DNA from: an uncultured virus (IMG/VR IMGVR_UViG_3300029955_000023)
Lineage: Duplodnaviria; Heunggongvirae; Uroviricota; Caudoviricetes
Length of the DNA stretch: 20,000 nucleotides
Strand: one strand, 5' to 3'
Virus record (IMG/VR): IMGVR_UViG_3300029955_000023
The notes beneath the pieces were generated by a model that saw only the letters and a program-made list of their open reading frames with translations, was not told where the DNA came from and did no database searches. The translations under genes were made by a program, and so were the position numbers. Of the stretch, positions 1 through 20,000 are shown piece after piece (position 1 is the first letter of the stretch; each line of letters begins with the position of its first letter).

Positions 1-1430
1 AGATAGAAAGGCGATGTCGGCGTGCGGGTATTTGTATCCGTAGTTTTTGTGCCGTTCAGATCAATGATGCCTGCCGATGCTTTCCACGATAGCCCCGTAT
101 CGTTCGCCCCGGTCCATGTGGCCGTATTGCTGGAACTGAGAACCGAAGCAAGCGCGGTCGTAGCGTTGTTTCCCGCTGTCTTTCCGAGCATAACAGCGCC
201 GTTCGCACTTACAAGCGTGGAGGCAGTCGAAGCAATACCGTCAGGCGTATTGATGACGAGCGCCCCGCCCGCCCCCTGCAACGCCACCAACGCCGGCCCA
301 ATGATCTGCACCACGTCCGCCGCGCGGGTGACGGCGCTTGCGGCGGTTGGGATCGCGCTCGTAGCAAACGCGCCCAATTCGACTTGCGGATATGTCATCG
401 TGCCGAGGGACGTGACGGTCACAACGAGCGAGGTCGTCGAGGTCGTTCCGGTGTAAGTCGTGCGTGTTGGATAGGCGCTGCCGGTCATAACCTGCGTCAG
501 CGCACCGGACAGCGTAAGGACGCCCGTGCCGTAGAAACTGACCGAGTAGGCCGAACCGCTGGCGACAGTGATCGTCTGCGTGGCGGGGGCGTTGCTGTTG
601 AGGAACAGGTTCGTCCTACTCTCTTCGATCCGCAGCCCTAGCGGCGCGAGCGTGGTGGGGCTGTAGTCGAAAGCAGGTCCGAAAAAGGATGCGCTGGTCG
701 TAGCGACCTGATCTTGAGCGCGGGGGGCTGTTTCGTAGGTGACGGCGGAAAGGGTGACGCCGCCCACATACATCGTCGAGTTGGCTACTCCATCTGGTCG
801 CAGCCATGGATAAATTTGTGTGACCGTCGTTTTGAATGCAATATAGATCTTAAACAAGCCCCCGCCCAACGAGATCGAACCATATGTTAAGTTGGAATAC
901 CCACCTATTGCAGCCGGTGCAGACGCCCCGCCAGTCGTGGCGTTGAAAGTCACCAATGCATAATCTGCCCCGTCCGTGAACGCGATAAGTGTGGTTGAAG
1001 CGGAAGTGCCGGCGGACATGTACGTGGAAAGAATATAATTCCCGCTTTGAACGCTAATTGGGTTGACTGCTTGAATCTGGGCAGTGCCACCATAACCCGT
1101 AACCTGCCAGAGATTGCCCGCTGGTGACGAAACAGCCGAAGCAGAAACGATTTCGCTAGGCCCCTGCCACCCGAGGGTGTTGCTTAAAGCGTTGCTATAC
1201 AACGCCAAATTATTCGGCGCATACGTAATCGCCCCCGTCGCGCCGGTGATCGTCCGCAGCGACGGGCCGCTGTAGGTGTAGTTCGCGGGGTCGAGAGCGC
1301 CGCCGAGAAAGTTTGTGTATACGGTCGGCTTTACGCCGCCGCTAAACAGCAACAGTTCCTGCCCCGGCGTCGCAGCAATCGCCCCCGCCGCAACCAGCAT
1401 AGCCCCAATAAAAGCGATCAGTCCCCGCAT
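1..1430 (-). CDS. Phage head-spike/fibre-like protein (>476 aa, 3' end outside the window; absent from the ORF track)
   Basis: Manual translation from ATG at 1430 (AGGA upstream) stays open to base 1: MRGLIAFIGAMLVAAGAIAATPGQELLLFSGG...FDYSPTTLAPLGLRIEESRTNLFLNS...QVELGAFATSAIPTAASAVTRAADVV. The GL.IEE.RTNL and Q.E.G.FATS.IPT....TRAAD motifs match my recollection of RcGTA-type head-spike fibre and related phage fibre proteins. Confidence 0.85.
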   Translation of the reverse strand, partial: MRGLIAFIGAMLVAAGAIAATPGQELLLFSGGVKPTVYTNFLGGALDPANYTYSGPSLRTITGATGAITYAPNNLALYSNALSNTLGWQGPSEIVSASAVSSPAGNLWQVTGYGGTAQIQAVNPISVQSGNYILSTYMSAGTSASTTLIAFTDGADYALVTFNATTGGASAPAAIGGYSNLTYGSISLGGGLFKIYIAFKTTVTQIYPWLRPDGVANSTMYVGGVTLSAVTYETAPRAQDQVATTSASFFGPAFDYSPTTLAPLGLRIEESRTNLFLNSNAPATQTITVASGSAYSVSFYGTGVLTLSGALTQVMTGSAYPTRTTYTGTTSTTSLVVTVTSLGTMTYPQVELGAFATSAIPTAASAVTRAADVVQIIGPALVALQGAGGALVINTPDGIASTASTLVSANGAVMLGKTAGNNATTALASVLSSSNTATWTGANDTGLSWKASAGIIDLNGTKTTDTNTRTPTSPFY

Positions 1431-5358: not shown

Positions 5359-5507
5359 TTAGGTTTCTCGTGAGACCTGAGGGAATGTTGCGCGCGACCT
5401 GACTCGTGCCCAATGGGCTTGCCTTTGAACTCGACGCGCTGGGGCTTGCGCGGCTTGGGCGGCGGTCGGACGGCTTGATGGGCCGGGCTGGCGGGCGCGT
5501 CGGTCAT
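5355..5507 (-). CDS. Small basic protein (50 aa, MTDAPASPAHQAVRPPPKPRKPQRVEFKGKPIGHESGRAQHSLRSHEKPK)
   Basis: Start overlaps the giant gene's stop (ATGA 5507-5504) and stop overlaps the fibre gene's start (ATGA 5358-5355), so it is coupled at both ends. The longer start at 5660 in the track is unlikely. Confidence 0.7.
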   Translation of the reverse strand: MTDAPASPAHQAVRPPPKPRKPQRVEFKGKPIGHESGRAQHSLRSHEKPK

Positions 5508-8500
5508 TGGCCGACCCCGAGCTTCGCCATTTTTTGCCGCGTCGCGTCGGCCATGATCTGTGGATATTTCATGAAAAGCACCCCGCGCGCCGCCTCGCGG
5601 CTGTGTTCGACGATGGCCTTGACCGCATCGACGCGGACGCCAACGGGCCATTGACGCCAATCCGGTGAACGCACGAACACGTCGAGGCGCTGTTTCGCCA
5701 TCCGGCCGGCGATGCGCGCGAAGTCATCATACTGCTGGTCTGTCAATTGCACATTTCGGATGGTTCGATCAACGGGGGCTATCCCGATCCCAAGTTGCGC
5801 GAGCGATATGTTCACCGGGTCTTGGCTCATCCGCTGTTCGTAAATCGCGGTGGCCCCGGCGGCGATCAGCGCATCGCGCGACGGAATCGGCTGGCCCCAA
5901 ATGTCGAGACGCGGAAACAGTTCTTCCGACATGCCGGGAGTTTTGGCGCGGATCGAGTCCATGACCGTGCGGGCCTGCCGAGAGTATGGGTCGCTTGCGC
6001 GCGCCATCTGCGCCATGCCGACGCTATACGGCACGAAAGACGATGCGAAATTCTGGATATAACGCTCGCCATAGCGGCCTGGGTCTTCAACGGCCTGGAT
6101 CAGTTCGGCCGGCCCGCGCATGAACGACTCGTCCAGCACGTTTTGCGTGACCGCGTGCTGCATCAGCGCGGCGGCCTGCAGCATGTCGCCGGTCGACGCC
6201 GTGTGCGCCACGTCGTACAGATCGGCTGACATGCCGAGCAGCATCCCGAGCGGCCCGAGCCGGTTCATCGCATACCAAGTGTCTCCGATCCGAACGGAAT
6301 GCGGCTGGTTTCCGGCCATGCGCCACATCGCGGCCTTGTTGCGATCCATCGGGCCAGAGCCGCTCACGTAGCCACTGGCGGCGAGCGAGCCGAAGCCAAT
6401 CGACAGCGCCGTGCCGACGATCATGCGGGCCTGCGCCATGTCCTGCGCGGCGACGCCGTTGCGGCCCATCAGGTCCGCGCGGATTTCCGACGACAGCAGG
6501 CCGGCGGGCGTCCGCTGCACGATGGACTGGTCGATGATATTCGCCGCGATGTGGACGAACGGGTCGATAAACTTGAGGATCGGCGTCTCGCCGAGGCCGG
6601 GCAGATTCGGAGCCCAATTGGTCAGTTTCGATAGGTGCTCGACGAACTTGCCGGCAGGCCCCATGAGCGTGAGGTCCGTCGCCCCCTTCGTCGAGGCCGA
6701 CATGATGTCATCGGGCGTGTTCAATCGCAATTGCGCGATCTTCGCCGCGTCGCCTTCGGCCTGCCGGTAGATCAGCGCCGATTTCTCGATGCTGTAATTC
6801 ATGGCTCGAAAAAAGGTGTGGATAGATGCGATGGCGCGGCTCGGCGCGCGCGCAAGCTGCCCGATCGGGATCACGCCCCCTCGAACCCGGACGTCGAAGA
6901 TAGCGCCCATCGGCGAATACATCGGCGCGGCGGTGCGCTCGCCGGCCGGCGTCGCCTCAAGCACCTTGCCTATGGCGAGCGCGCCGTCGAGCACTCCACG
7001 AAACGCGCCGAAGATCGCCGCCTTGGCGTCCGCGCGCGTCGCGCCCTCGTTCAGCATCTTGCCGGCCAGCGGGAGCGCCTGCTCCGGCTGATAGGGGAGG
7101 GCACGCACCTTGTCTTGGCCGGGAAGCCGCCCGGTCAGGCCGGTGCGGAAAGCGTCGGCCGCCGCTGTGACCGCCGGGATATAGCCAGACGCCGCGCCGC
7201 GTAGTCTGGCCGCCACCTCGCCGAAGCGGACTACGTTCGAAGTGTCGCGACCCATTGGGCCGCGCAGCGCGCCCAGCGCGGCGGCTGTGGTGGTTTCGAG
7301 CAAGCCCTTCTGCATCGACAGGATCATGTTGCCGATCACGTAGGTTGTATGCGTCGCCGGGCCGGAGATCAGCCCGTTGATCCAGTATTCCAGCAACATG
7401 CGACCGAACGAATGCTTCGCGGTCGCGTCGGTCAGATAGGCGATGGCTTCCGGCGTCTCGTAGGCCGCCAACAGCTTCATCTCCTGCGTCTTTTGGTAGA
7501 GCGTGCGGCCGGTCGCCGCGAGCATCACCTTGTCGATATCGCCCTGCATCATGCGGAAGATGTTGAGCGCGCGGCCCGCCTCCGCCGTCGCGCCCATGAT
7601 CGACTTAAGCACCATGTCGAGCCGGGCCTGTTCGGTCGCGAACGCCAGCACGCCTTCCGGCGACTCATCCTTGAGCCGCGAGATGCGCCCTACCTCGTTG
7701 GCTTGGTCGGTCAATAGCTCCTTGAGCGCCACGATCTGCTCGGCGTTCATCGCTCGCCCGCGCACCCAGCCATCGACCAAATCGGCCGCGCCAAACTTAC
7801 CCATCGCCGCGGCTAGTTCCTGCGTTTGCGCCCACGTCGTCGGCGCGCGGCGGTCGCCGATGAAGTCGCCATTCGCCTCGGAGCGCGCCTTGATCGCCGC
7901 CCACACGTCGTCGGCGACGTTGATGTTGGCGCGCTTGAAATTGCCCGCCTTGTCTACGTAGGGGGATTCTCCGTCCCCGATGAGCCTGACGGGCCGGGGG
8001 GCGAGGGGGGCATCCCTAAGAGGGTCGCTAGATTCGGGTCGTCCGCTGGCGGAGCCTCCGGCGGTGGGCTTGCCGACTTCTGCCGGAGCTGCATTTCCGC
8101 CTGCGCGCTCCTGGCCGCCTGCGCCGCCCATGACGCCGCCGCCGGACTGAGCCCCGGCTTGGCCGCCACCGCCGACCATTTCTGGTAATCCGACGTCGCC
8201 GCGTCCAACTTCTCCTGCGGCGTCGCCTCCTGGTCCTGCTGCTGCGGCTTCGACTTCTTGGACGGCTTGGGCGATTTCATCGGCGATCTCCGTCGGCGGT
8301 TGAGCGTCGTCAAAATGCGGCCGCTCGGCCTCGACCCGGTCGGCCGCGCCGCTCGCGTGTTCGTGCGGCGTCTGCTCGGCGGCTTCCGCGTGGAGGTCGT
8401 CGAGGCCGCGCCCCGGTTCCGCGTGCGGCGCGATCACCGTAGCGCGATCTTTCGTCTCGTGCATGTATTCGAACACGCTGCGTAGCGCCGGACTGATTTC

Positions 8501-11500
8501 TACGTTCAGGCCCTCCACCCGATCGTAGAGAGGGAGCATCCAGTCGCGGAACATCTTGAACACGCCGTCGAGCGCGCGCGTCGGCGCGGTTCCCTCGTAA
8601 AGCCAGCGCATGTAGCCGTTGGCGAACTTCTCGTGCGCCTTGGTCGAGATCACGTTGTCCGCGCCAACGCCTGTTTCGCGCTTGGCAACCTCCCACATAT
8701 CGCGCATCCGTTGCGGCGCTTCAGGATGTGCGGCGTCGCGCTTGAGCATCTCGAAGAAATCGTGGCCGAGTTCGTGGATCGCCGTCGTCGCGTTGGCAAT
8801 TTTCATCAACGTGATGATCGACCGCTGGCCGAGCCGCAAGAGGATGCGGCCGAACTGGCTCTGCTCAAGCTTGCGCTCGTCCTCATCTGGCTTCTCGGCT
8901 TCAATGGCCTGCGGAGCCTTTGACGGGTCTTTCGGCTTCAAGTCCTCCGTCAGCGCGGCCAGCTTCGCAGCCGCTTCGGCGTATTCCGCTTGGCGCGGCC
9001 ATGTCGCCGCCGCTGCCTTCGACAGCGTGTCGTATTCTTTCTGGTTCCCCGCGATCTGCGCCTCGACGCGATCCGCCTGCGCCTTGATCTCCGCGAGCAA
9101 CCCGGTGAACTTCGCCATCAGGCCGACCGGATCAGTCTCGCTGTTGATGATGAACTCGTTCGGGCTGGCGTAAAGGCTATTTCCCTCAAGCTGTAGCTTG
9201 CCGACGGTGATGATGTTTTCCTCTTGCGACGCGCCGCCGTAGGAATAGCTGCGCCTCAATTCGATGCTGGCCGGGAAGCCGCCAATCTCGCCGAAGTTAA
9301 GTGCGCGGGCGCTATGGCTCAATTGCGGAGCAATCCGCAGCACGCCGTCACGCACCTTCTCGCCGGCTGCTTTCCGGTCCGTGAGCGTGGTCCCGTCGCT
9401 CAACGTGATCTTGAACTTGTCGCCGCGAATGTCCTGCACGCGCTCGGAATCCTCTTTCGCAGGCGCAAGGTTCCGCTTCAATTCTTCAATGTGAGATTGC
9501 AGGCCCTTCACCTGCCACGTCGCACGCTGCTTGGTCTGGTCGAAACCGCGCTTTTGCGCCGTCAGTTGCCGCACCTGCCGCGTCAGTTCGGCGTGCTGCA
9601 TGATGCGCGGGTCGCCGGAGGCCGCCGCCTTGAGCATCTCGGCCTCGGGCAACGGGTTGTCGATGTCCTCGGCGACGCGGACGCCCTTCGATCCGCTGTT
9701 GACCTGCCCGATGAACTTCGCCTTGCGCTCTAAAAGCTGCCAGCGCGTCGCGTCCAGCGACCGTTCGGTGATGTAGCGCAGGATATGGACCTCTTTGTTG
9801 AGGTTGCCTTGGCGCAAAATGCGCCCATCGCGCTGTTCGATCTCCGCCGGCTTATGTGTCGGGTCCATGTGGTGCATGGCGATCAGGCGCTTCTGCGCGT
9901 TGGTGCCGACGCCCATCTTTTCCGTCGAGCCGATCAGCACGCGCGTCACGCCGTCATTCATGCGCGCGAATAGGGCGCGCTTCTTCTCATCGCTGTCGGC
10001 GTCGTGGATGAACTCGATCTCCTTGCGCGGGATACCTTCGGCCACAAGCCGCTGGCGCATGTCCTCGTAAAGATTGATCGGTGGCGGCTTCCCGGCCGCG
10101 CTCTCGTCCTTCGGGACCACGGTGCGCAGCGCCTTCTGCTCGGCCTTGGTCAGATCGCCCCACGAACGCTGCCAGTCGCGGTCCTCAATGTTCTTCGTCG
10201 ATCCCGCCGCGCGCGCCCAATCCATGCGCTCGTCGCCGGTCACGGCGTCCCAAGTCGCGGCGTAGCCTTCATCGCTCTCGGCGACCCTGGCCTTGGGCGT
10301 GCCGCGATCCATGAACACCATCTGCGAGCGCGCGTTCGGATCGTCCTTGTAGCGGTCGTATATGTCTTTGATGTTCTTGACCGCGAGCGCGATTTTGCCG
10401 TTCGGGTTGAACTCCATCGGCTTCGGCACCGCAAAGCCCATGATGTCGCCGTCGCGCAGCAAGCGCCCGTCGAGCGCGGCCTTGTTCCCGGCCCCCATGA
10501 GCGACAGCGTGTTGTCCTCGCCCTTCTCGCGCCGCAGGCCCTTGATCTCGGCGAGGCGCTCCACGATGCGCCGCACGGCGGCTTCCTCGTGCTCGGAAAG
10601 CTGCGCGGTGTGAACTTCGATCCCCGGCTTGCCGTCGCGCGTCATCAACGCCGGGCGTGGCAGGTTCAACTGCTCGGCCGATTGCGAGTCGGCGATCTCG
10701 GAATAGAGCGAGATCAACTCGGGAATGTTGACGAACTTCGAGAACGACGTGACGTCTTTGATCGACCTCCCGTCGGGAGCCATCTCGGGCTGCGTCACCA
10801 CCTTGCCGAAGGTGTTGCCCCAAGCGTCGAACTTATCCAACCCGCGCTCTTTGAGCTTGTCGAGTTGCAGATAGCGCATCATGGTCCAAAGCTCGGCCAT
10901 GCTGTTCGACATCGGCGTGCCGGTCGCGAAGATCGCCGAGCGCCCAGGCTTGCGCTGCTCGAGGTAGCGAATCTTCATAAACAAGTCCTCCGACCGCTGC
11001 GAGGCGGCGGAGGAAAGCCCGCGAATGTTCGAGTAGCGCGTCGGGAAGGCAAGGTTTTTGAACAGGTGCGCCTCATCGACGATCACTTGGTCAATGCCCG
11101 ATTCCTCGAATGTCGTTCCCTCGTCCTTCACTTCGTCGTTCAACAGTTTTTGCAGTCGGGCGTTCATCTTCTCCATCGCGCTTTCAAGCTGCTTGACGGT
11201 GCGCGACTTCTTTGTTTCCCCCGCCGCACGATCCGCCGCCTGCTGCGCTTTAAGCGCTTCGCGATATTCCGCAAGCTGGTCTTGGATGAATTGGCCTTGC
11301 GTTTCGCTCGATACGCCGATGCGTCCGAACGCGCTGTGCGTGAAGATCACGGCGTCCCAATCGTTCGAGGCGGTTTTGGCTACAAACGCGCGGCGCGCGT
11401 CGGGCGACATCTCGTCCTTGTTCGCCACTAGGATGTTGGCGTCAGGATAGGCCTGAATGAACTCGGTCGAGAATTGGTCGAGCATGTGGTTCGGGACGGC

Positions 11501-14500
11501 CACGCAAGGCTTTTGAATAAGTCCCAGCCGCTTTTGCTCCATCGCCGCCGCTATCATCGTTACGGTCTTACCGCTCCCGACCGCGTGCGCGAGCAGCGTG
11601 TTGCCCTTCTGCAAGATGCGCCAGACCGCGTTCTTTCGGTGCGCGCGGTCGGTGAACATCGGATTGAGGCCCGGTAGCGTCAGGTGCGAGCCGTCGGCCT
11701 TCCATTGCACCAGATCGTTCATGGTCCGATTGTAGACGCCCTCAAGCAATTCGCCGCGCTGCTGGTCCGCGAACGCCCAAGGCTCCACGCCCTTGTCAGG
11801 GTCGCCGGAGAACATCGAGCGGATTTCCTCGATCTTCGCCGCGACTTCTTCTGTCTTGGCTTGGTTCACAACGCGCGTGTCGCGGTCGATCTGGTCATAG
11901 ACCGTGATCTGATTGTTGTTGAACGCCGCCTTCATGATCGACTTGAGAGTGACGTCAGATCGACCGACGCCCCATTTCGTCTCTGCCGATGGCTTGAAGC
12001 GGTCAGCCTCGACGCGCCATTCCTTGTTGACCGGCAGCAATTCGACCTTCGGATTGACCGCGCCCAATTCCTTGAGGAAGTCGGCGTGGACCTGCGCGGG
12101 TATCCACGGTGCGCCCAACTGCGCCGTGATGTCTACGGCTGTCAGCAGGGGCGGCTGCACCTTTTCGAGCGCCGCGACGTTGCGCGCATAGGTCGGATCG
12201 GTCGCGGCGATGGCGCGCGCATCTTCCAACTTCTTGATGACGGTTCCCGACAGGTATTGATCGGCGGATTCCCATTCGCGCCCGTTCGGGTTCTGGTAGA
12301 TCAGGTCGCCCAAGCGCGCGACAACCTCGTCCTCGTCCTTCGCTCCCATAAGCTTACCGATCTCTTGCAGATCGACCTTGCCTTGGGTGTCAAGCACGGA
12401 CGCCAGCGCGTCGGCGGAACTGTTGATCTTGCGGTCCACCGGCGCGGCGATGACGTCCTTGGTCTGGATCGCGGCGCGCGTCGCCGTATCCTTCTCAGGA
12501 TCGTAATTCTCAATGGACGCAACCTTGTAGACGTCGGGGTCGTCGCGGAATTCCTCGAAGTTCGGATGCTTGATGCGAACCTGCGGGTTGCCGTCAGCGT
12601 CCAGCTTCTTCGAGACGATCTTAACCTCTTTGCGGATCGGGCCGTGTTTCGCCACGAACTCGTCGTAGGCGTCGCGCAGCGCCTCGCGCAGCTTCTCGGC
12701 GTCGCCGCCCTTGCCGAGTTGCGCCTTGAGCAGATCGTTGTAGATGTCGCGTATGCCGATCAGCTTCGACACGCGCGCAACGGTCTCCGGCGACATTTTC
12801 TGCGGCTCGCCAATGCCCTGAACGCGCCGGTAAATCTGGCCGTCTTTGAGAGCGTATCCGCCTTCTTTGACGTCCATTCCCATGTCGTCGCGATTGATGG
12901 TCGGCGGCGGCGGCGTGGCGCGCTTGGTGAAAGCGCCGGGCGGCATTTTTCCCGCCGCCTCGCCGATCTTGGCGCGCAAATCGTCCGGCTCGCCCATCAG
13001 CACGGGCTCGTTCGCTCCATACATCGAGCCTTTCAGCCGCATTTCGCCGAGCATCATGTCGGGGCGGTCGGCGAAATACTCGTTGATGTGCGTCGGGCCT
13101 TCCGGCGTCTGGATTTCCTTCGTGTCCATCCAGTCCGCGCTCGCGAACGGAGCCTCGCCCGGAATCTTCTTGCGCAGGAAGATAATGTCGGTCGTGACTT
13201 CTGTTCCAGCGTTGCCGGCGAATGCGCCCTCCTTGCCGCCTGGCAAGCGGATCGCGCCCACAAGATCGGCGTCTTTCGCCAGCCGCGCGCGCACGTCCGA
13301 ATTGGCCTTGTCCATCGTCCCCTTGGACGTGATGAACGCCACCACGCCGCCAGGGCGAACCTTGTCGAGCGACTTCACAAAAAAGAAATCGTGGATCAGG
13401 TGAGTGCCGTGCGGCTTCTCCGTCAGCGAATAGCTGCCGAACGGCACGTTGGAGATCGCGAGATCGTAATAGTTCGACGGGCGCTTGAGCGTCTCGAAGC
13501 CCTGATTGTTGACCTCCGCGCCGCCGTATAGCGCCTTGGTGATGCGGGCGGACAGCGGGTCAAGTTCAACAGCGGTCCATGACGTGCGCGGCGCGACGCT
13601 ATCGGGAATGAGACCGATGAAATGGCCGATGCCGGCCGACGGCTCGATGGCCTCGCCGCCCTTGTAGCCGAGCGCCGTCAGCGCATCCCACATGCCCTTG
13701 ACGACTTCCGGCGACGTATAGTGCGCGTTCTTCGTCGAAGCGCGCGCGGCGGCGTATTCCTCGTTGGTGACGAGAGCGCGAAACGCCTTGCGCTCCGCCT
13801 TGAACTCATCCTGCCGGTCGGCATTGAACATCTTTTCAGAGAACGCGCCCCAGCCGGTGTATTTGACCAGCTTCGCCTTTTCCTCTTGCGTCGCCTCGCG
13901 CGCCTCGTCCTCGATCAGCTTGAGCGTCTTGATCGCGTCGATGTTCGCCCGAATCTTCGCCTTCGGGCCGCCCTCGCCGATGGCGTCGGCGTCGGTGATG
14001 CGATAGTTCGCGCGCGACCGCTCCGCGATCTTTTGGCGCGCTTCTACTCGTCCTGCGGCTGCGGCGTCGGTTGATGGATCAGGTCGTGCCTGATCAGTTC
14101 CGTCAGAGCTTCTTGGTGGCCCGCTAACACTTTCTCCCTCGCCAACTGGTCCAAGTCCCTCGTCTCGTCGAGCTTCTTGAACATTTCGTGGTTCATCGTC
14201 TCCGCCGCCGACTCCCCCACCGAGGTCAGTCGTGCTTGGAGTTTGCCGGATTGGCTTAGGCTCCGGTGCAGGCGTGGGTGATTCGCTTTCAGGAAGCTCT
14301 CGTGCTCCGCCGCGAACCGTCTCTCCATCGCGTCCATAATCGACACTCCATTCCGGCGCGCTCGCCCAGGCGTCATCGAACAACTTGAGCGCCCGATCCA
14401 TCACGTCGCGGTAGATCGCGGTATCAGCCGGGTCGACCGATTCTTTCAGCCGCTTCACCGGCTGTCGCATCTCGTGCGCCTCGTCCATAACCCGCATCAC

Positions 14501-16903
14501 GGGCTCAGGGACAAGCTGCAACTCCGCCGACATGCCGTCGCCAAGGCCTATTTGCAAGTGGATGGCGCGATAACCTTCCTTGCCCGGACGAATAAAGTCC
14601 TCGGCCTCGATTATTGCGCCCGTTGCCTTGATTTTGTCGAGAATGGCGTCTAGGTTTTGAACGTGGTCGACAACGATACGCGCGCCGAGATAGTCGGATA
14701 TCGTGTTCGGGTTCCGCCTCTTCGCCGACAATTTGAGTTCGAGGCCCGGCAAGTCCTTTGCCCGCGCCCCATACACGCGCGCGCCGTCGACGCCCTTGAC
14801 TAGCTCGTTAAGCCTGTCGAGAAGCTTCGGCTTGTTTTCCTCGGCGGCGGCCAGCAGCGCCTTGTAGTCGCTTGATCCTTGAATTATCTTCTTACCGGAG
14901 GCTTGGTCGATGTCCCCCAACGAAAAATCGGTGAAGCGCGTAATCTCTGGCCCCTCGAAGATCGACGGCGGCATCTGCCGCATGGTCGAGCTTTCCGACG
15001 GCTCCGCGCGCTGCGAATCCTGGATCAAAGGCTCGGGCTGGGAGGAAGGCGGCTGCTTCCCTTCCGAGTTCATGTTCGCGCCGCCGGTCTCCTCGGAGCT
15101 TGCCTCGCGGATGGGCTGTCCCACTTCCGAGCTTTCCAAGGTCTGAACCGGCTCGGGCTCGGGTTCCGGCTCCGGCGCTTCCGCGATCTGCTCCTTTGCG
15201 ATCGCATCGACGTCCGGCTCCGGGGATGCCGCGCGCCGTTGCGCCTCCGCCTCGGCCTCCGCCGGCACGACGGGCAACTCAGGCGGCAGCTCGACCGACG
15301 CGACCACTTCCGGCCCGGTCTTGGCGCGCTTTCCGCCCACGCGGCGCACCTTGCCGTCCTCGCCTCTGATATCCGCGCCCTCGCGGCGATAGATTTCCTC
15401 CGGCGTTCCGATCTTGCCCTCGAACGCCTCCGAGCGCGCGGCCATGCGCGACGCCACGATGTGCCCCAGCGCCTCGGCTTCATCCGGCGGGCGTCCGGCG
15501 CTGATGAACTGGCGCTTGGCGTCGTCAACGATGGCCTGCAGGTCGCCGCCGCCGGCCGCCGCCTCGCCCTCCGGCGCGACCATCGCCCCGCCGACCTTCT
15601 CCGCCGCGCGCCGGTGCGCCGCGCTGATCTCTGGCGCGATGTCCGCAATCTTGGCTTCTACGGCGGTAACTTGCGCGTCGAGCGCGCCGTCGTGCGGCAA
15701 TTCGTCGGCGGCCTTCACGAGCGCGTCGCGCTGCGCGGTCAACGCCTCATATTCGCGGAACGCCTCGACGTGCGCGTCGCGCGCGAGCGGAGCCGGGTTC
15801 GGCAGTTCAGCCGTCCCGACGGTCGCTTGTTCCTCGCGCTGCGCGGCCTGCGCGGCCTGCTCCACGGCGGGCGGAGATTCCTCGTCGCCCATGAACGTCT
15901 TTTCGGTGCGAGCCGGGCCGCCCACGCCAAGCGCCCAGGCGTCGGTCAGCGTGGGGGGCCGCTCGCCATAAACGTAGTTTGCGTCGACGTCGGCCAGCGT
16001 GTGTTCTGGTCCGGCTGGCGGTTCGGTCACGGCTCCGTAAATGCCGCCCACGTCGTAATCCTGTCGCCCCCGGAACCGCTGACCTTGTTCCTCGAATGGC
16101 GGTTCTTGGGGTTTCAGCCCCATCACGTCATGTGCGGTAGTTCGCCCGAGCAAGCGCGGAATGATGCCCTCTATGGCCTCTCCGAAGCGATTTGGCTTGT
16201 TGAACACCAGACCGAAGCCGGTCGAGATCGCGACCTTGTTCCAATCGACGTCGCCCTCGGCCGCCTCTTGCCCCAACTCCATGCCGCCCATCAACGCGCC
16301 GCTGAATAGCCGCTGCGTCGCCGGATTGACCATTAGACGTTGGAGCGCGGTCGAGTTCTCCGGCAGTTTCGCCGCCGCTGAAAAACCGCCCGGTTTCATC
16401 GTCAGCGCGAACGGAGCCATGCCGCCGAGAAATGTCGCGTAGGGGTGCTGCTCTTGGTCGAGGCGCTGCTGGCGCTCGTCTTGGCCTATCGACTCCACCC
16501 ACGAATCCGGCAGCTTCGACAGGCCGTAATCCTGAGCCTTCTCAGCCGCGAACGATCCGCCGAACCCGCCGATCAAGCCGCCAGCAACGCCGCCGACCAA
16601 TTCGGAAATGCCGGTTTCGCCGAGGCCTGGGACCAGAGCGCCCGCCGCCGCGCCGTAGGCCGCGCCCGCTCCTGCGCCAGCGAGACCGCCCGCCGCCGGG
16701 AGCGCGCCGCGCGCCGCGCCTCGCGTGAACGCGCCGGACGTTGATGAGCCTGTCGGGTCGACGGTCTGGCCATTCAGCAGTTTCGCGAACGGGTCGTTCT
16801 CGTCATCGGCAGGCGGCGGCGCGGCCTGATAGCGCAGCGGCTGGTCGCCGCCGCCTAAGACGCCCGCAAACGGATCGGCAACTTGACCATCGGCATCGGC
16901 CAT
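5504..16903 (-). CDS. Giant DarB-like polyvalent (probably virion-ejected) protein, 3799 aa: RelA/SpoT-like + N6-MTase + SNF2 helicase + metallopeptidase-like + LPD38-like
   Basis: Single uninterrupted ORF with a TAATG overlap to the upstream gene and a Gly/Ala-rich hydrophobic N-terminal segment. Motifs are listed in the domain features. The MTase-helicase pairing is the architecture of phage P1 DarB and of large polyvalent proteins. Confidence 0.93.
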   Translation of the reverse strand: MADADGQVADPFAGVLGGGDQPLRYQAAPPPADDENDPFAKLLNGQTVDPTGSSTSGAFTRGAARGALPAAGGLAGAGAGAAYGAAAGALVPGLGETGISELVGGVAGGLIGGFGGSFAAEKAQDYGLSKLPDSWVESIGQDERQQRLDQEQHPYATFLGGMAPFALTMKPGGFSAAAKLPENSTALQRLMVNPATQRLFSGALMGGMELGQEAAEGDVDWNKVAISTGFGLVFNKPNRFGEAIEGIIPRLLGRTTAHDVMGLKPQEPPFEEQGQRFRGRQDYDVGGIYGAVTEPPAGPEHTLADVDANYVYGERPPTLTDAWALGVGGPARTEKTFMGDEESPPAVEQAAQAAQREEQATVGTAELPNPAPLARDAHVEAFREYEALTAQRDALVKAADELPHDGALDAQVTAVEAKIADIAPEISAAHRRAAEKVGGAMVAPEGEAAAGGGDLQAIVDDAKRQFISAGRPPDEAEALGHIVASRMAARSEAFEGKIGTPEEIYRREGADIRGEDGKVRRVGGKRAKTGPEVVASVELPPELPVVPAEAEAEAQRRAASPEPDVDAIAKEQIAEAPEPEPEPEPVQTLESSEVGQPIREASSEETGGANMNSEGKQPPSSQPEPLIQDSQRAEPSESSTMRQMPPSIFEGPEITRFTDFSLGDIDQASGKKIIQGSSDYKALLAAAEENKPKLLDRLNELVKGVDGARVYGARAKDLPGLELKLSAKRRNPNTISDYLGARIVVDHVQNLDAILDKIKATGAIIEAEDFIRPGKEGYRAIHLQIGLGDGMSAELQLVPEPVMRVMDEAHEMRQPVKRLKESVDPADTAIYRDVMDRALKLFDDAWASAPEWSVDYGRDGETVRGGARELPESESPTPAPEPKPIRQTPSTTDLGGGVGGGDDEPRNVQEARRDEGLGPVGEGESVSGPPRSSDGTDQARPDPSTDAAAAGRVEARQKIAERSRANYRITDADAIGEGGPKAKIRANIDAIKTLKLIEDEAREATQEEKAKLVKYTGWGAFSEKMFNADRQDEFKAERKAFRALVTNEEYAAARASTKNAHYTSPEVVKGMWDALTALGYKGGEAIEPSAGIGHFIGLIPDSVAPRTSWTAVELDPLSARITKALYGGAEVNNQGFETLKRPSNYYDLAISNVPFGSYSLTEKPHGTHLIHDFFFVKSLDKVRPGGVVAFITSKGTMDKANSDVRARLAKDADLVGAIRLPGGKEGAFAGNAGTEVTTDIIFLRKKIPGEAPFASADWMDTKEIQTPEGPTHINEYFADRPDMMLGEMRLKGSMYGANEPVLMGEPDDLRAKIGEAAGKMPPGAFTKRATPPPPTINRDDMGMDVKEGGYALKDGQIYRRVQGIGEPQKMSPETVARVSKLIGIRDIYNDLLKAQLGKGGDAEKLREALRDAYDEFVAKHGPIRKEVKIVSKKLDADGNPQVRIKHPNFEEFRDDPDVYKVASIENYDPEKDTATRAAIQTKDVIAAPVDRKINSSADALASVLDTQGKVDLQEIGKLMGAKDEDEVVARLGDLIYQNPNGREWESADQYLSGTVIKKLEDARAIAATDPTYARNVAALEKVQPPLLTAVDITAQLGAPWIPAQVHADFLKELGAVNPKVELLPVNKEWRVEADRFKPSAETKWGVGRSDVTLKSIMKAAFNNNQITVYDQIDRDTRVVNQAKTEEVAAKIEEIRSMFSGDPDKGVEPWAFADQQRGELLEGVYNRTMNDLVQWKADGSHLTLPGLNPMFTDRAHRKNAVWRILQKGNTLLAHAVGSGKTVTMIAAAMEQKRLGLIQKPCVAVPNHMLDQFSTEFIQAYPDANILVANKDEMSPDARRAFVAKTASNDWDAVIFTHSAFGRIGVSSETQGQFIQDQLAEYREALKAQQAADRAAGETKKSRTVKQLESAMEKMNARLQKLLNDEVKDEGTTFEESGIDQVIVDEAHLFKNLAFPTRYSNIRGLSSAASQRSEDLFMKIRYLEQRKPGRSAIFATGTPMSNSMAELWTMMRYLQLDKLKERGLDKFDAWGNTFGKVVTQPEMAPDGRSIKDVTSFSKFVNIPELISLYSEIADSQSAEQLNLPRPALMTRDGKPGIEVHTAQLSEHEEAAVRRIVERLAEIKGLRREKGEDNTLSLMGAGNKAALDGRLLRDGDIMGFAVPKPMEFNPNGKIALAVKNIKDIYDRYKDDPNARSQMVFMDRGTPKARVAESDEGYAATWDAVTGDERMDWARAAGSTKNIEDRDWQRSWGDLTKAEQKALRTVVPKDESAAGKPPPINLYEDMRQRLVAEGIPRKEIEFIHDADSDEKKRALFARMNDGVTRVLIGSTEKMGVGTNAQKRLIAMHHMDPTHKPAEIEQRDGRILRQGNLNKEVHILRYITERSLDATRWQLLERKAKFIGQVNSGSKGVRVAEDIDNPLPEAEMLKAAASGDPRIMQHAELTRQVRQLTAQKRGFDQTKQRATWQVKGLQSHIEELKRNLAPAKEDSERVQDIRGDKFKITLSDGTTLTDRKAAGEKVRDGVLRIAPQLSHSARALNFGEIGGFPASIELRRSYSYGGASQEENIITVGKLQLEGNSLYASPNEFIINSETDPVGLMAKFTGLLAEIKAQADRVEAQIAGNQKEYDTLSKAAAATWPRQAEYAEAAAKLAALTEDLKPKDPSKAPQAIEAEKPDEDERKLEQSQFGRILLRLGQRSIITLMKIANATTAIHELGHDFFEMLKRDAAHPEAPQRMRDMWEVAKRETGVGADNVISTKAHEKFANGYMRWLYEGTAPTRALDGVFKMFRDWMLPLYDRVEGLNVEISPALRSVFEYMHETKDRATVIAPHAEPGRGLDDLHAEAAEQTPHEHASGAADRVEAERPHFDDAQPPTEIADEIAQAVQEVEAAAAGPGGDAAGEVGRGDVGLPEMVGGGGQAGAQSGGGVMGGAGGQERAGGNAAPAEVGKPTAGGSASGRPESSDPLRDAPLAPRPVRLIGDGESPYVDKAGNFKRANINVADDVWAAIKARSEANGDFIGDRRAPTTWAQTQELAAAMGKFGAADLVDGWVRGRAMNAEQIVALKELLTDQANEVGRISRLKDESPEGVLAFATEQARLDMVLKSIMGATAEAGRALNIFRMMQGDIDKVMLAATGRTLYQKTQEMKLLAAYETPEAIAYLTDATAKHSFGRMLLEYWINGLISGPATHTTYVIGNMILSMQKGLLETTTAAALGALRGPMGRDTSNVVRFGEVAARLRGAASGYIPAVTAAADAFRTGLTGRLPGQDKVRALPYQPEQALPLAGKMLNEGATRADAKAAIFGAFRGVLDGALAIGKVLEATPAGERTAAPMYSPMGAIFDVRVRGGVIPIGQLARAPSRAIASIHTFFRAMNYSIEKSALIYRQAEGDAAKIAQLRLNTPDDIMSASTKGATDLTLMGPAGKFVEHLSKLTNWAPNLPGLGETPILKFIDPFVHIAANIIDQSIVQRTPAGLLSSEIRADLMGRNGVAAQDMAQARMIVGTALSIGFGSLAASGYVSGSGPMDRNKAAMWRMAGNQPHSVRIGDTWYAMNRLGPLGMLLGMSADLYDVAHTASTGDMLQAAALMQHAVTQNVLDESFMRGPAELIQAVEDPGRYGERYIQNFASSFVPYSVGMAQMARASDPYSRQARTVMDSIRAKTPGMSEELFPRLDIWGQPIPSRDALIAAGATAIYEQRMSQDPVNISLAQLGIGIAPVDRTIRNVQLTDQQYDDFARIAGRMAKQRLDVFVRSPDWRQWPVGVRVDAVKAIVEHSREAARGVLFMKYPQIMADATRQKMAKLGVGQ
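5700..6420 (-). other. LPD38-like C-terminal domain (approximate bounds)
   Basis: PHSVRIGDTWYAMNRLGPLGMLLGMSAD...SFMRG...DPGRY...ASSFVP...DPY...RLDIWGQP resembles, from memory, the conserved C-terminal region of phage giant ejection proteins. Confidence 0.55.
7954..8280 (-). CDS. Nested same-strand (+1 frame) ORF, 108 aa, unknown function
   Basis: GGAG (8291-8288) lies 7 nt before ATG 8280. Helical-looking core EKLDAATSDYQKWSAVAAKPGLSPAAASWAAQAARSAQAEMQLRQK. The host frame becomes a Gly-rich linker over the same interval. Confidence 0.55.
   Translation of the reverse strand: MKSPKPSKKSKPQQQDQEATPQEKLDAATSDYQKWSAVAAKPGLSPAAASWAAQAARSAQAEMQLRQKSASPPPEAPPADDPNLATLLGMPPSPPGPSGSSGTENPPT
8450..8870 (-). 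other. Zincin-like metallopeptidase (MPTase-like) domain
   Basis: HELGH (HExxH) at 8776-8762 with downstream HEKFA (H at 8635) supplying a candidate third zinc ligand. Confidence 0.65.
9690..11700 (-). other. SNF2/SWI2-type SF2 helicase domain
   Basis: Walker A AHAVGSGKT (from 11590), VDEAH (D at 11077), ATGTP, STEKMGVGTN and motif VI QRDGRILRQGN (Q at 9835). Confidence 0.93.
12920..14010 (-). other. N6-adenine DNA methyltransferase domain (DarB-like)
   Basis: SAM-binding EPSAGIGHF (E at 13645), AVELD, catalytic NVPF (NPPF-like; N at 13450), GAIRLP and TEVTTDIIFLRK. Confidence 0.92.
14044..14337 (-). CDS. Nested same-strand (+1 frame) TnpV-like protein, 97 aa
   Basis: GGAG lies 8 nt before ATG 14337. 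MDAMERRFAAEHESFLKANHPRLHRSLSQSGKLQARLTSVGESAAETM...EALTELIRHDLIH matches the remembered TnpV pattern YLKEH.P.LY..L..SGKL..HL..I...A.E...E.V..ELIY. The host frame is low-complexity here. Confidence 0.72.
   Translation of the reverse strand: MDAMERRFAAEHESFLKANHPRLHRSLSQSGKLQARLTSVGESAAETMNHEMFKKLDETRDLDQLAREKVLAGHQEALTELIRHDLIHQPTPQPQDE
14360..14880 (-). other. RelA/SpoT-family (small alarmone synthetase/toxSAS-like) nucleotidyltransferase domain
   Basis: Ordered SYNTH motifs: RAK (14764), SDYLGARI (D 14695), GYRAIH (G 14575), ELQL (E 14524) and AHE (H 14476). No hydrolase domain is apparent. Confidence 0.85.
14862..14901 (+). promoter_or_regulatory. Candidate antisense sigma70-like promoter plus SD for the nested antisense ORF
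   Basis: TTGTAG (14862-14867), 17-nt spacer, TATCTT (14885-14890), then GGAGG (14897-14901). Consensus match is only 3/6 and 4/6. Confidence 0.4.
14910..15146 (+). CDS. Nested antisense ORF, 78 aa, candidate antitoxin/immunity protein for the RelA/SpoT domain
   Basis: GGAGG lies 8 nt before ATG 14910. The sequence looks globular (VISGPSKIDGGICRMVELSDGSARCESWIKGSGWEEGG...FMFAPPVSSELASRMG), while the giant frame reads Ser/Pro-rich like an antisense shadow. Function is inferred from position only. Confidence 0.65.
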   Translation: MSPNEKSVKRVISGPSKIDGGICRMVELSDGSARCESWIKGSGWEEGGCFPSEFMFAPPVSSELASRMGCPTSELSKV

Positions 16904-19900
16904 TACGGCGAAATCCCCATTGTCGTGTTGAACACCGGGGCTAGCGCATCCTGTTTCGGCGGCTCATTTCCCACGTTTTCAGGCTTGCCGACAAGGCTCC
17001 CGCGCAGATCGCGCACGGTCCGCTCCGCCGAGAAGCCTGCCGGGCCGAAGTGTTTGTCGAAATATTGCATCGTCGCGTTCGTCGGGCTCTCCGACAAAAT
17101 ACTAAGCACATTAGCCCATTGTGTGTGCGTGATCGGTTTCCCGCCGACGCTGGGCGGCTTTGTGACGTAAGACTGCCACGCCGCCGGAGCGACATTTGCA
17201 GGCGGTGGAGGAAGTGGCGCGTCAGGCGCTTCCTGCCCGCCCGCGCCGATCTGAAATTCGTTGATCTTCGCGCGGGGCCTCAATATCGTGAGCATTTGGT
17301 CCAGCTTTTTCTGATCAAACAGCGGGAAGTCCGCCATGTTCTTGTTAGCGTTGCGCCAATCATCCAACTGCCCATAGAACATGTTGAGGAACTTCAATTC
17401 GTAGATGCCCTTACCTTCCGGGTCTTTCACCTGGTAATAAGGCTCGTTCACGCTCTTATCGAGATAGTCCTTCGCGTAGCTTAGAACGCCAGCCTCACGT
17501 TGTTGCATCCCGAGTTCGCTCGTGGATTTCTTCGTCTTGTCGAGGACGCCGAGCAAATGGTCTGAGCCCTTGGCCGTCAACTTTCCGTCGGCTTCCATCT
17601 TCAAGATGTCGCGCGGATCGCTGATCCGATCAGTCTCACTCTTGGGCTCGACGATGTTCTTGAGCGCGTCGGCGTATTCCGAGCCGTAGCTGATCGGGTT
17701 AGGGTTGCCGGATCGGCGCTCAAGAACGTCGCTCAACGTGTCGAATGCCTTTTCCGATAGCGGCCGGCGCGGGTCGGCCATTAGCGCGTTCAATTTCGCA
17801 TAGGCCGCCGTGTAACTTTCCTTGCGCGCAGTCCCGAGAACGTCGTCTGTCGCCTCTTTCTCGCGCGCGGCCACGGCGCGTTGCTGCTCGCCGGCCGCCG
17901 CGATCTCGAACGCCGCGCGTTGTGTGATCTGGCGCTCGCCCTCGATCATCTGCTCTGGCGTCAGACCCATGCCCTGCAAATGTTGCATCGCCGCCGACTG
18001 GCGGTCGTAGATCGCGTTCACCACATCCTCGGGCGTCTGCGGCGGCGCGGGAGGCGTCAACGCGGCAGGCGGAGATGTAGTGAGCGCGGCGTCGGTCGGC
18101 TTGACCGTTTCGAGGGATTCTGGCTCGGCCGACGGCGCGGCGTCCTCCCAGCCGGGCCGCGCCATCGTCCCGCTCGCCGACAGGGAGCCATGACCAAGAG
18201 GCTGCGTTGTGGCGGCGACGCCGGGCGCGCCCAGCCGCCCCAAGATGCCATTCACATATTGCGAGACGAATGTGCCTTGCCCGTCGTGGCGGTTCTCTTT
18301 CCACGGCGTCGCCGAGCCGGGCGGCGCGACGTTCCCCTCGCCGGAGAAATAAGCGACCGCCACTCGTGCGGCGTCGCCGTTATATTTCTGCGAGTAATAT
18401 TCAAGGATGCGGTGGCCGACGCGCTTGTTGTCCTCGGGGTTGTCAATCGTCTCCCCCGGCTTGGCGAACCGATTGAATGTGTCGGGGATGATCTGCATGT
18501 CGCCGTGCGCATTATCGACGCTCGTCGTCGTGTTCTTGCCGCCGCCGGATTCTTGGCCGTGGAAAGCGGGATAGAGATCATCGCCGGAATACTTCTTGCC
18601 GCTTGCCGCTGCCGGGGCTACGTCGCCCAATAGCCCACTGTAGCTCGCCGGATGAACACGGTCTGGCGACAATTTCGACGGGTCGACAGGTTGAAACTTC
18701 GCGCCGGTTTCATTTGCAAATTTTTTGATCCTGTCGTTCAGCCCGGCAAAATCAGCCCGATCACCAACGCCCATCACCGTGATGTCTGACGGTTTCGCGC
18801 CCTTCTTGATCGCCTCGCTGATTTGAGAGAAAGCGTAACCGACGTCCTTTGGGCTGTTTGACAGCCCTGTGGAGATGACAACCGGCTTCCCAGCAAGGGA
18901 GCCGTCAGGGAGCGCGTGCAAGACATCGTAAACCTGCTGCGGCGTGCGCCCGACTTTTGTGTCACCCGACAGCCCGTAGGCTGTTTTTACGCCTTCGCCG
19001 AGGCTGTCGCCGTAGACTTGGGCGTTCGAGGAAACCGGCGTCGTCTTGGGCGGGCCGCTCCCCGCCGCGTCCCAAGAAGCATTGCCGCCGCCTTTGCCGA
19101 CAGCGCGGTCCGCCGCCTGGTGCGCCTTGTCGAGCGCCGCGCCAAACGCGACGCCGAATTTCGCCTCGTTGGCGCGCACAAACGCTTCCGCCTTCGTCGG
19201 GTCGTTGACCTCAATTGTGTCGGCCTTCGAGATATAGGAGCGGGCGACACTATCGCGCACGCTCTTTGCTGTGGCGTCATAGTTCGAGCCAAGTGCGGTT
19301 TTCAGTTTCGGGTCATCCAGCTTGGCGAACGCCCCGTCAGGGTCTTTCGTCGCCATTCCTTCAAGGCCGGATTTGTAGACGAGAGCCGCTTTATCCTTCG
19401 CTGCCGCGATTGAGTCGGGGTCGGCCTCCATACCGGCGCTTTGCAGCTTCTTGATCTCGCCCGACAGCGCCTTGTGATAGGAAACTTCGACTGTCGCCCA
19501 ATTTCCGTCAGACCCCGCCGTGGCCGCCATCGAGTGCGCGACTTCGATTCCGGCGTCTGCTGTCTTAGTCGCGAACTGCCGCCCTGCATCAATAAACGTC
19601 GTGTTCAACTGCCCGCGAATGTATCGGTCAAAGAACGGGCGGTTCTGGTTGTCAAAAAAATGCTGCTGATCGGGAGTCCCGAGTTGGTTGCGATATTTCG
19701 CGTAAATGCTGTCAAGCGTCGTGTTCGCGCTCTTCTGCGCGTCAAGGGCGTCCTGTCCCTGCAACGAGCGAATATGCTCGGCGAAGTCCGATGCTTCCTT
19801 CTGCGCATTGTTCGAGGCGTCGTCCGCTTGGACGTGGCCCCAAAACTTGCTGAGATCGACCGCGCCAGCGCCAGCCTTTTCCGCGCCCTGCGCAATCGCT

Positions 19901-20000
19901 CCACCGAAGGATGACGGATTGGCCTCGATGTGCTGGTAGTCGTCGGGCGGACGGGCATCCGGCTGAACGTCGTCCGCGCCTCCGGCGTAAGGGACTTGGG
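16903..20000 (-). CDS. Internal virion/ejection protein with SGNH esterase and lytic transglycosylase domains (>1030 aa; 5' end just outside the window)
   Basis: The frame stays open upstream of the track's TTG start (19764) to the window edge: QVPYAGGADDVQPDARPPDDYQHIEANPSSFGGAIAQG... Helical Ala/Lys/Asp-rich scaffold. Located directly before the giant gene. Confidence 0.88.
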   Translation of the reverse strand, partial: QVPYAGGADDVQPDARPPDDYQHIEANPSSFGGAIAQGAEKAGAGAVDLSKFWGHVQADDASNNAQKEASDFAEHIRSLQGQDALDAQKSANTTLDSIYAKYRNQLGTPDQQHFFDNQNRPFFDRYIRGQLNTTFIDAGRQFATKTADAGIEVAHSMAATAGSDGNWATVEVSYHKALSGEIKKLQSAGMEADPDSIAAAKDKAALVYKSGLEGMATKDPDGAFAKLDDPKLKTALGSNYDATAKSVRDSVARSYISKADTIEVNDPTKAEAFVRANEAKFGVAFGAALDKAHQAADRAVGKGGGNASWDAAGSGPPKTTPVSSNAQVYGDSLGEGVKTAYGLSGDTKVGRTPQQVYDVLHALPDGSLAGKPVVISTGLSNSPKDVGYAFSQISEAIKKGAKPSDITVMGVGDRADFAGLNDRIKKFANETGAKFQPVDPSKLSPDRVHPASYSGLLGDVAPAAASGKKYSGDDLYPAFHGQESGGGKNTTTSVDNAHGDMQIIPDTFNRFAKPGETIDNPEDNKRVGHRILEYYSQKYNGDAARVAVAYFSGEGNVAPPGSATPWKENRHDGQGTFVSQYVNGILGRLGAPGVAATTQPLGHGSLSASGTMARPGWEDAAPSAEPESLETVKPTDAALTTSPPAALTPPAPPQTPEDVVNAIYDRQSAAMQHLQGMGLTPEQMIEGERQITQRAAFEIAAAGEQQRAVAAREKEATDDVLGTARKESYTAAYAKLNALMADPRRPLSEKAFDTLSDVLERRSGNPNPISYGSEYADALKNIVEPKSETDRISDPRDILKMEADGKLTAKGSDHLLGVLDKTKKSTSELGMQQREAGVLSYAKDYLDKSVNEPYYQVKDPEGKGIYELKFLNMFYGQLDDWRNANKNMADFPLFDQKKLDQMLTILRPRAKINEFQIGAGGQEAPDAPLPPPPANVAPAAWQSYVTKPPSVGGKPITHTQWANVLSILSESPTNATMQYFDKHFGPAGFSAERTVRDLRGSLVGKPENVGNEPPKQDALAPVFNTTMGISP
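18230..18590 (-). other. Soluble lytic transglycosylase (SLT) domain
   Basis: Motif I QESGG (catalytic E at 18552), motif II AHGDMQIIPDT, NPEDN...G..IL, and motif III AVAYFSGEGNV. Confidence 0.88.
18630..19026 (-). other. SGNH/GDSL hydrolase domain
   Basis: Block I VYGDSLG (S at 19005), block II VGRT, block III VVISTGLSN (N at 18858) and block V DRVHP (D 18663, H 18654). Confidence 0.8.

Follow-up and report, generated by a model that had tools for sequence, protein, structure and literature searches.

A conserved gene overprinted in antisense on a giant phage protein was identified in a 20,000-nucleotide stretch of an uncultured Caudoviricetes virus (IMG/VR IMGVR_UViG_3300029955_000023), the whole of which is called the window here. 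The giant protein, of 3799 amino acids (aa), is encoded by a single open reading frame (ORF; 5504..16903, minus strand) and contains a RelA/SpoT synthetase domain resembling small alarmone synthetases (SAS). The antisense gene, unannotated and 78 aa long (14910..15146, plus strand), starts within the coding sequence of the N-terminus of this domain and shares third codon positions with the giant ORF. Conservation across loci, a codon test, an AlphaFold2 (AF2) model and free-standing homologues show that it is a real conserved coding sequence linked to the domain. The best explanation, to which about an even chance is given, is that the domain is a RelA/SpoT-fold pyrophosphotransferase carried in a likely ejected polyvalent protein and that the antisense gene encodes its predicted cognate inhibitor, the two forming one in-frame cassette. 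The first-pass annotation of the window had drawn attention to the synthetase domain; the notable feature of the locus lies beyond it, in the conserved antisense gene tied to that domain.

The antisense gene is preceded by a GGAGG ribosome-binding site (14897..14901, plus strand), placed 8 nt before its ATG and inside the synthetase coding sequence. In homologous proteins the segment ahead of the domain is conserved and reads like the shadow of another frame. Examination of 43 loci, which yielded 29 distinct domains, identified a homologous antisense ORF at the same place in 14 of the 29, with 24-63% identity. Thirteen of these copies were used to build an antisense profile, and the held-out copy, L034, was recovered by it with an E-value of 2.9e-19. 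The aligned start column holds ATG or GTG in 12/13 loci and in 0/5 of the loci lacking the gene, and a Shine-Dalgarno sequence of at least 4 nt is found at 11/13 loci with the gene and at 1/5 of those lacking it. The start codon overlies a D-I-D motif of the host frame, and where the host protein reads D-T-D (L016) the antisense start becomes GTG.

The codon test bears directly on the suspicion that the antisense ORF is just one of the shadow ORFs often cast by a host frame when DNA is GC-rich. Such frames are indeed often open by chance here, with a stop rate of 2.5% per codon and many shadow ORFs present. Because the two frames share wobble positions, bases on which the host frame mostly sets no constraint reveal what an antisense protein requires. 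Among the 13 aligned copies, 27-63% identical to that of the window, M1, D19, G20, R24, E36, W38 and W44 are invariant. The W38 and W44 columns are TGG in 26/26 cases, against a background of 345/1217 (28%), and in control columns, the invariant Gln and His of the enzyme core, TGG occurs in 27/84 and stops in 14/84. D19 and E36 never exchange while their synonymous codons vary. No stop was found in 993 antisense codons against about 25 expected, a count that is partly circular and drawn from related rows. This wobble-base constraint on Trp, Asp and Glu, together with the conserved start and Shine-Dalgarno sequence, a confidently predicted antisense fold, free-standing homologues with a closed opposite frame and an RNA contig lying on the gene alone, largely refutes the shadow explanation, which is now hardly credible.

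The antisense protein was modelled by AF2 as a four-stranded meander with two short helices, with a mean predicted local distance difference test (pLDDT) score of 81.8. Gene callers had reported only 8 family members, on contigs of at most 9 kb. A DNA-pattern scan identified 6 viral loci, 4 beside a synthetase and 2 free-standing, the latter at 481-780 (plus strand) in L063 and 9632-9925 (minus strand) in L064. Both free-standing copies have their own Shine-Dalgarno sequence and a closed opposite frame, which establishes the antisense family as a genuine gene. They are candidates for orphan immunity genes, and no match to them was found in PHROGs. In both records the copy is opposite in orientation to the neighbouring replication and terminase-like genes. 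The protein P0163 is counted with the free-standing members, and a search for relatives of P0163 or P0116 among species genomes found none. Four further supposed loci of the family, L053-L056, were rejected as chance hits, and the idea that the free-standing copies reside in satellites was dropped, their neighbours being ordinary phage replication genes.

The linkage of the gene to the synthetase was followed in both DNA and protein. All five related genomes searched (5/5) hold exactly one antisense copy each, always at the domain. For the host-frame signature of the antisense gene, 154 proteins were examined and 18 excluded as truncated; the signature adjoins the domain in 74/139 classifiable proteins. 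In P0116, P0126 and P0153 it follows the domain instead of preceding it, as seen at the protein level only; this downstream placement was not confirmed on DNA, the one locus available, L065, being without the synthetase part. In P0012, two synthetase domains stand in tandem (aa 1272-1660), with the signature before the first. The locus shows the arrangement typical of type II toxin-antitoxin and effector-immunity systems, a small conserved gene genetically linked to the putative toxin. HD hydrolases (PF13328) were found in 0/6 phage records, with the control detected in 10/14 genomes, a search in which a divergent Aph1 could be missed; alternative immunity of the HD-hydrolase type was thus not seen.

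Linkage of this kind could also arise if the antisense gene were real and served another role, as an activator, a chaperone, a superinfection-exclusion factor or a regulatory moron, held in place by a start and ribosome-binding site inside the N-terminus of the domain. Physical overlap alone would explain the co-inheritance of the upstream copies, the surroundings of the free-standing copies are phage replication-terminase regions whose assembled part includes no synthetase, and fold searches gave no similarity to the Tis1, IapK or pZFD inhibitors. Against this stand the three proteins with the signature downstream of the domain, where no overlap forces linkage, and the single copy per genome, always at the domain. 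A role other than inhibition is rated as fairly improbable. For the inhibitor reading, comparison was also made with known enzymes: ToxSAS enzymes are generally accompanied by small adjacent inhibitors (PMC12691689, PMC7229694), and because adjacent small genes mark toxic SAS in these reports, the enzyme of the window may be toxic as well.

The synthetase domain itself spans aa 654-848 of the giant protein (14360..14944, minus strand), including an N-terminal extension. The first-pass annotation had placed an alarmone-synthetase-like domain at 14360..14880; its identity is borne out by Pfam and by fold, and its extent is larger than was given. The Pfam family RelA_SpoT (PF04607; curated cut-off 27 bits) matches the excised domain with 32.1 bits (E 1.5e-7) and the whole protein with 27.4 bits. 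The RxK, DxxGxR, GYRxxH, ExQ and H motifs reported earlier were all located in frame within the ORF 16903..5504, as R714-A-K716 (nt 14764), D737-Y-L-G740-A-R742 (nt 14695), G777-Y-R-A-I-H782 (nt 14575), E794-L-Q796 (nt 14524) and H810 (nt 14476). A nucleotidyltransferase fold, the absence of which had been named as the refuting outcome, was obtained by AF2 from an alignment of 18 homologues with a pLDDT of 93.9. The top Foldseek matches of the model are RelP and RelQ (E 9e-9), and Tas1 and CapRel also match. VIA comparison with the model gave Z-scores of 16.3 for RelQ (5ded; root-mean-square deviation 2.4 over 160 residues), 15.8 for RelP, 14.2 for Tas1, 13.6 for CapRel and 8.2 for FaRel2. Using the donor-site residues described for FaRel2 (PMC11782079), counterparts at the same spacing were found as R714, K716, K724, D737, G740, R742, Y778, E794 and Q796; S70 and R77 of FaRel2 have no counterpart. 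Among 154 homologues the catalytic residues are conserved in 153 (R), 154 (K), 154 (D), 151 (E) and 147 (Q). The modelling confirms a predicted intact synthetase fold, equipped with ATP-donor residues, in a virion-module polyprotein.

The product of the enzyme was weighed from its motifs and its relatives. The Apk2/Tas1 signature, given as RYT in Syn2, GxN in Syn3 and YH in Syn4 (PMC12226406), is replaced in the window by GAR, AIH and LV. Read from sequence, the motifs exclude this signature and slightly favour (p)ppGpp relative to tRNA. (p)ppGpp is tentatively favoured, at somewhat under an even chance; pyrophosphorylated tRNA CCA is a less likely product, an inactive domain or some other product is unlikely, and (p)ppApp is more unlikely still.

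The tRNA alternative deserves a closer look, since it keeps the same injected enzyme-inhibitor cassette and changes only the acceptor, from GTP/GDP to the tRNA 3'-CCA end, with a CapRel/FaRel2-like block of translation. CapRel and FaRel2, which bind tRNA through their N-terminal region (PMC11782079), are the only structures that align to the N-terminal extension (from residue 2-3), alignments to RelP, RelQ and Tas1 starting at 25-26, and CapRel gives the best Foldseek template modelling score (0.66). FaRel2 binds tRNA through N-terminal K28/R29 (PMC11782079), and the position of K671 in the giant protein is basic in most homologues (R in 84, K in 30), its equivalence to K28/R29 being putative. 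The Z-scores point the other way, with RelQ and RelP above CapRel and FaRel2, as do the sequence scores, which favour RelQ/RelP (40.5 bits) over Tas1 (16.5 bits), FaRel2 being absent from the matches listed. A block of translation at entry would also hinder the early genes of the phage itself. As a complete account, the tRNA-directed cassette is considered unlikely.

The delivery of the enzyme was assessed from the giant protein and its genomic context. The giant protein consists, in order, of an N-terminal membrane-like region, the synthetase, an N6-methylase, an SNF2 helicase, an HExxH motif and an internal-virion-like C-terminus. Several conflict domains (methylase, SNF2 and RelA/SpoT) are thus joined in one large phage polypeptide, as is characteristic of polyvalent proteins, and no MuF or PAAR domain is among its Pfam hits. 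The methyltransferase-helicase region (aa 907-2682; 8858..14185, minus strand) matches phrog_10089 with 1596 bits and Pfam SNF2, giving the methylase and helicase of P1 DarB type. The fusion to a DarB-like protein proposed earlier is upheld to this extent, the DarB-like label fitting the methylase-helicase part only. The junction of synthetase and methylase reads continuously in one contig of run X22, itself a possible source of the window DNA, and the synthetase also lies ahead of the methylase start motif in four other proteins (P0003, P0006, P0036 and P0050).

The C-terminal region (aa 3439-3683; 5855..6589, minus strand) resembles the internal virion protein phrog_6651 (E 7.6e-24). Upstream of the giant gene, an SLT-containing gene of internal-virion type, open at the window end (16903..20000, minus strand), was identified by Pfam SLT (E 2.2e-11) and a PHROG lytic tail protein match. 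The virus record runs to 66,309 bases and includes a head-tail module of podovirus type: a head-tail adaptor, a major head protein, three phrog_394 tail genes, the tail gene phrog_376 and two internal-virion genes (phrog_308 and phrog_418). The two internal-virion genes are followed by the SLT gene and then by the giant gene, the adjacency of the last two across the contig ends being inferred from a duplicated SLT start. In podoviruses, this slot belongs to the largest ejection protein. Because the gene occupies that slot and its C-terminus matches an internal-virion PHROG, the giant protein is likely to be ejected with the phage DNA, by analogy with such proteins. The injection suggested by the first-pass annotation is thus plausible, on these grounds and not on the precedent of P1 DarB from which it had been argued.

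A different possibility is that the domain does not act at entry, being a catalytically weak or inactive nucleotide-binding or structural module, or one active only in the producing cell. The V-P of Syn4 is atypical, a 45-row clade with an altered G-loop (GYPSAN and others) nevertheless persists, and the host protein also bears DNA-protecting methylase and helicase domains. Opposed to this are the Mg/ATP-binding residues, near-invariant among the 154 divergent homologues, and the internal-virion slot of the giant gene, and this possibility is judged quite unlikely.

Taken as an entry-stage effector with a cognate inhibitor, the cassette would work as follows. With ATP as donor, a small number of ejected copies would pyrophosphorylate a 3'-OH acceptor, of which GTP or GDP is the likeliest, and the resulting pulse of (p)ppGpp would dampen host transcription and translation. 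The small antisense protein would inhibit the synthetase by binding to it. Transcription of its gene, separate from that of the late operon, would supply the inhibitor before the bulk of the giant protein is made; the inhibitor would also be present in a carrier cell and would protect it when a related phage delivers the domain. The antisense orientation would decouple expression from the late operon, protecting both the producing cell and any carrier. The host frame stays open across the inhibitor gene, so that the pair could be exchanged between polyvalent proteins as a single in-frame cassette.

Several observations weigh against this reading. No antisense copy is detectable at 15/29 distinct DNA loci, and the signature is missing from 23/88 proteins with an intact R..H motif. 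The list of the top 150 proteins is enriched for the signature, since the search profile spanned that region. A coupling between motif loss and gene loss (67/100 vs 3/36, Fisher p 6e-10) was rejected as evidence: it is essentially one 45-row clade, with one independent pair on a quick tree (sign test p=1), and is given no weight because of that single pair. No synthetase is contained in the records of the free-standing copies L063 and L064, whose completeness is only 16% and 22%. For the antisense protein, Pfam, NCBIfam and Atlas returned no hit, and it resembles no known inhibitor; that of the window has no Tyr and so no YXXY, and no YXXY column occurs in the alignment of the copies. Nothing clearly similar came from fold searches with it (best E 0.17 in BFVD, best Z 3.8 with VIA), an absence that is not proof of a new fold. 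On the enzyme side, Syn4 reads E-L-Q-L-V-P and differs both from (p)ppGpp enzymes, which have IR, and from Apk2, which has YH. Because swapping motifs is reported not to switch the product (PMC12226406), assays alone can decide it.

The evidence for expression is subject to the same caution. A 261-nt contig of depth 3.1 from run X24, a peat metatranscriptome, covers 14899-15141 and nothing else in 13500-15600; X24 is the only RNA run listed, and the uncovered flanks within that interval serve as the silent-region control. The contig is unstranded, comes from one run at depth 3 and may reflect DNA carry-over, X24 itself was found with the window stretch, and the 3' end of the contig coincides with a skipped repeat. 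Being unstranded, from one run and ending at that repeat, the contig is therefore taken as a hint, and the antisense gene is probably expressed. A promoter scan returned two weak 9/12 sites, which were not used.

Comparison with known systems places the cassette among them in part. Iyer 2017 described phage polyvalent proteins in which RelA/SpoT domains accompany methylase and SWI2/SNF2 domains, and proposed that the host is shut down at entry in an alarmone-like manner (PMC5512222). The presence of such domains in polyvalent proteins, as stated in the first-pass annotation, and its idea of altered signalling on entry are thus already known in kind from that source. The domains described there are found in Spirochaete (pro)phages and in those of epsilon-proteobacteria, whereas here they form a large environmental phage family with a hidden antisense partner, and the main text of PMC5512222 does not mention 'antisense' or 'overlapping'. 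In the mostly open-access literature searched, no antisense-overprinted partner in polyvalent proteins was reported, and the supplements of Iyer 2017 and Jimmy 2020 may list family members. The antisense-overprinted partner is what is new here, the synthetase domain in a polyvalent protein alone being of a known kind.

In Apk2 (MuF-fused) and Tas1, with IapK/Tis1 and Aph1, a delivered protein likewise bears a toxic synthetase domain, and a small cognate gene adjoins it. The window differs from them in its lack of RYT/GxN/YH, of MuF/PAAR and of any hydrolase gene found, in the internal instead of C-terminal position of the domain, and in a partner overprinted in antisense instead of following in the operon. 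RelQ and RelP are the closest match in both fold and sequence and share the GxR and GYRxxH motifs; they are only 16-20% identical, have IR where Syn4 of the window has V-P, and lack the N-terminal extension and the embedding in a virion-type protein. CapRel, FaRel2 and PhRel share the common core, a structurally aligning N-terminal extension and an association with phages; their pZFD/YXXY antitoxin has no counterpart here, and they are host or prophage defence modules, not virion cargo. Phage P1 DarB shares the methylase and SF2 helicase (phrog_10089), whereas the window has a podovirus-type structural module in place of the P1 Dar system, together with an extra synthetase domain and nested genes.

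The domain family was searched with a profile of the synthetase domain and the 70 residues upstream of it, which yielded 198 clusters at E<=1e-30 and 3315 at E<=1e-3, the latter including unrelated SAS. A tblastn search of the domain against 50,697 GenBank phages gave no match. Among 15 host proteins scanned, several contain SNF2, LPD38, DdrB-ParB, InPase, DarA-C, 2H or GGDEF domains, and because the homologues are found with such varied domains the synthetase is regarded as a mobile module of phage polyvalent proteins. LPD38, DdrB-ParB, InPase and DarA-N are listed by Iyer 2017 as confined to phage polyvalent proteins (PMC5512222).

The 15 loci without the antisense gene have altered G-loop motifs, except L042. 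In L042, an AT-rich phage, a candidate antisense ORF, divergent in sequence and containing two Trp as well as GEVLIAPP, is visible by eye upstream of the synthetase, below the hidden Markov model threshold. A derived clade (L009-L011, L023-L029, L037, L038, L041 and L043) lacks the antisense gene and has changes in its G-loop (among them GYPSAN and GYRxxS); it keeps the catalytic R, K, D, E and Q, some members are fused to a 2H phosphoesterase or GGDEF domain, and it possibly uses a different acceptor.

A wider interpretation, held tentatively and at rather less than an even chance, is that polyvalent ejection proteins are in-frame cassettes in which each dangerous domain has a small partner overprinted on its flanking linker. 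The present family would then represent widespread, unclassified injected alarmone or tRNA toxins, with an antisense immunity unseen by annotation, expressed alone in carriers and orphan in other phages, in a form of phage-versus-phage warfare. If true, a late-expressed virion polyprotein could contain a toxic enzyme at its centre and leave the producing cell alive, the antidote gene riding in the linker, and the free shuffling of such domains would be explained. The 'disordered linkers' of giant phage proteins would be predicted to hide an unannotated class of genes, and a new small inhibitor fold for RelA/SpoT enzymes would be added. The alarmone-injection proposal of 2017 would become testable, since the toxin could be cloned alongside its predicted antidote.

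Other nested ORFs were identified in the giant gene. The linker between synthetase and methylase contains a TnpV-like gene of 97 aa in the +1 frame (14044..14337, minus strand), preceded by GGAG at 14349-14346. It matches Pfam PF14198 above the cut-off, with 27.3 bits in the window and 40.2 bits for a homologue in a related genome (G001), and the GC content at third codon positions (GC3) of the host frame drops over it from about 0.8 to 0.28-0.48. In L004 (3060-3362), 39/96 residues are identical to the window in the nested frame and 33/96 in the host frame, and the gene was also seen by eye in L020/L021. It lies just before the methylase domain in both the window and L004, and its occurrence goes with the methylase, not the synthetase, where both are visible; it may be a former partner of the methylase-helicase that the linker has retained. 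As an antitoxin candidate it was dropped, being present in only 3 distinct lineages and tracking the methylase instead of the synthetase. A third candidate nested ORF, of 108 aa in the +1 frame, lies in a linker at 7954..8280 (minus strand), where host GC3 dips to 0.58-0.68; a homologue was found in 0/5 related genomes searched. The giant gene of G002 (L049), encoding a 5142-aa polyvalent protein, has Shine-Dalgarno-equipped +1 ORFs of 121, 53 and 60 aa at host aa ~754, 1565 and 4200. These further ORFs suggest that nesting is general.

The runs containing the window are peat metagenomes, with 23/24 flagged as possible sources, and the phage genome (G000) encodes a serine recombinase. The start of the SLT gene is present at both of its contig ends (1-1057 and 65284-66309) in copies that have diverged, their aligned pieces sharing 91-94% identity, and a block of 1.76 kb occurs twice with 99.7% identity (37478-39238 and 40216-41976); strain mixture or assembly artefact is possible for both. 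The tail protein phrog_394 is present as three tandem paralogues at 6104-8211, and short-period repeats at 38065-38613 and 40803-41351 read as PVTLVT/PVPP on one strand.

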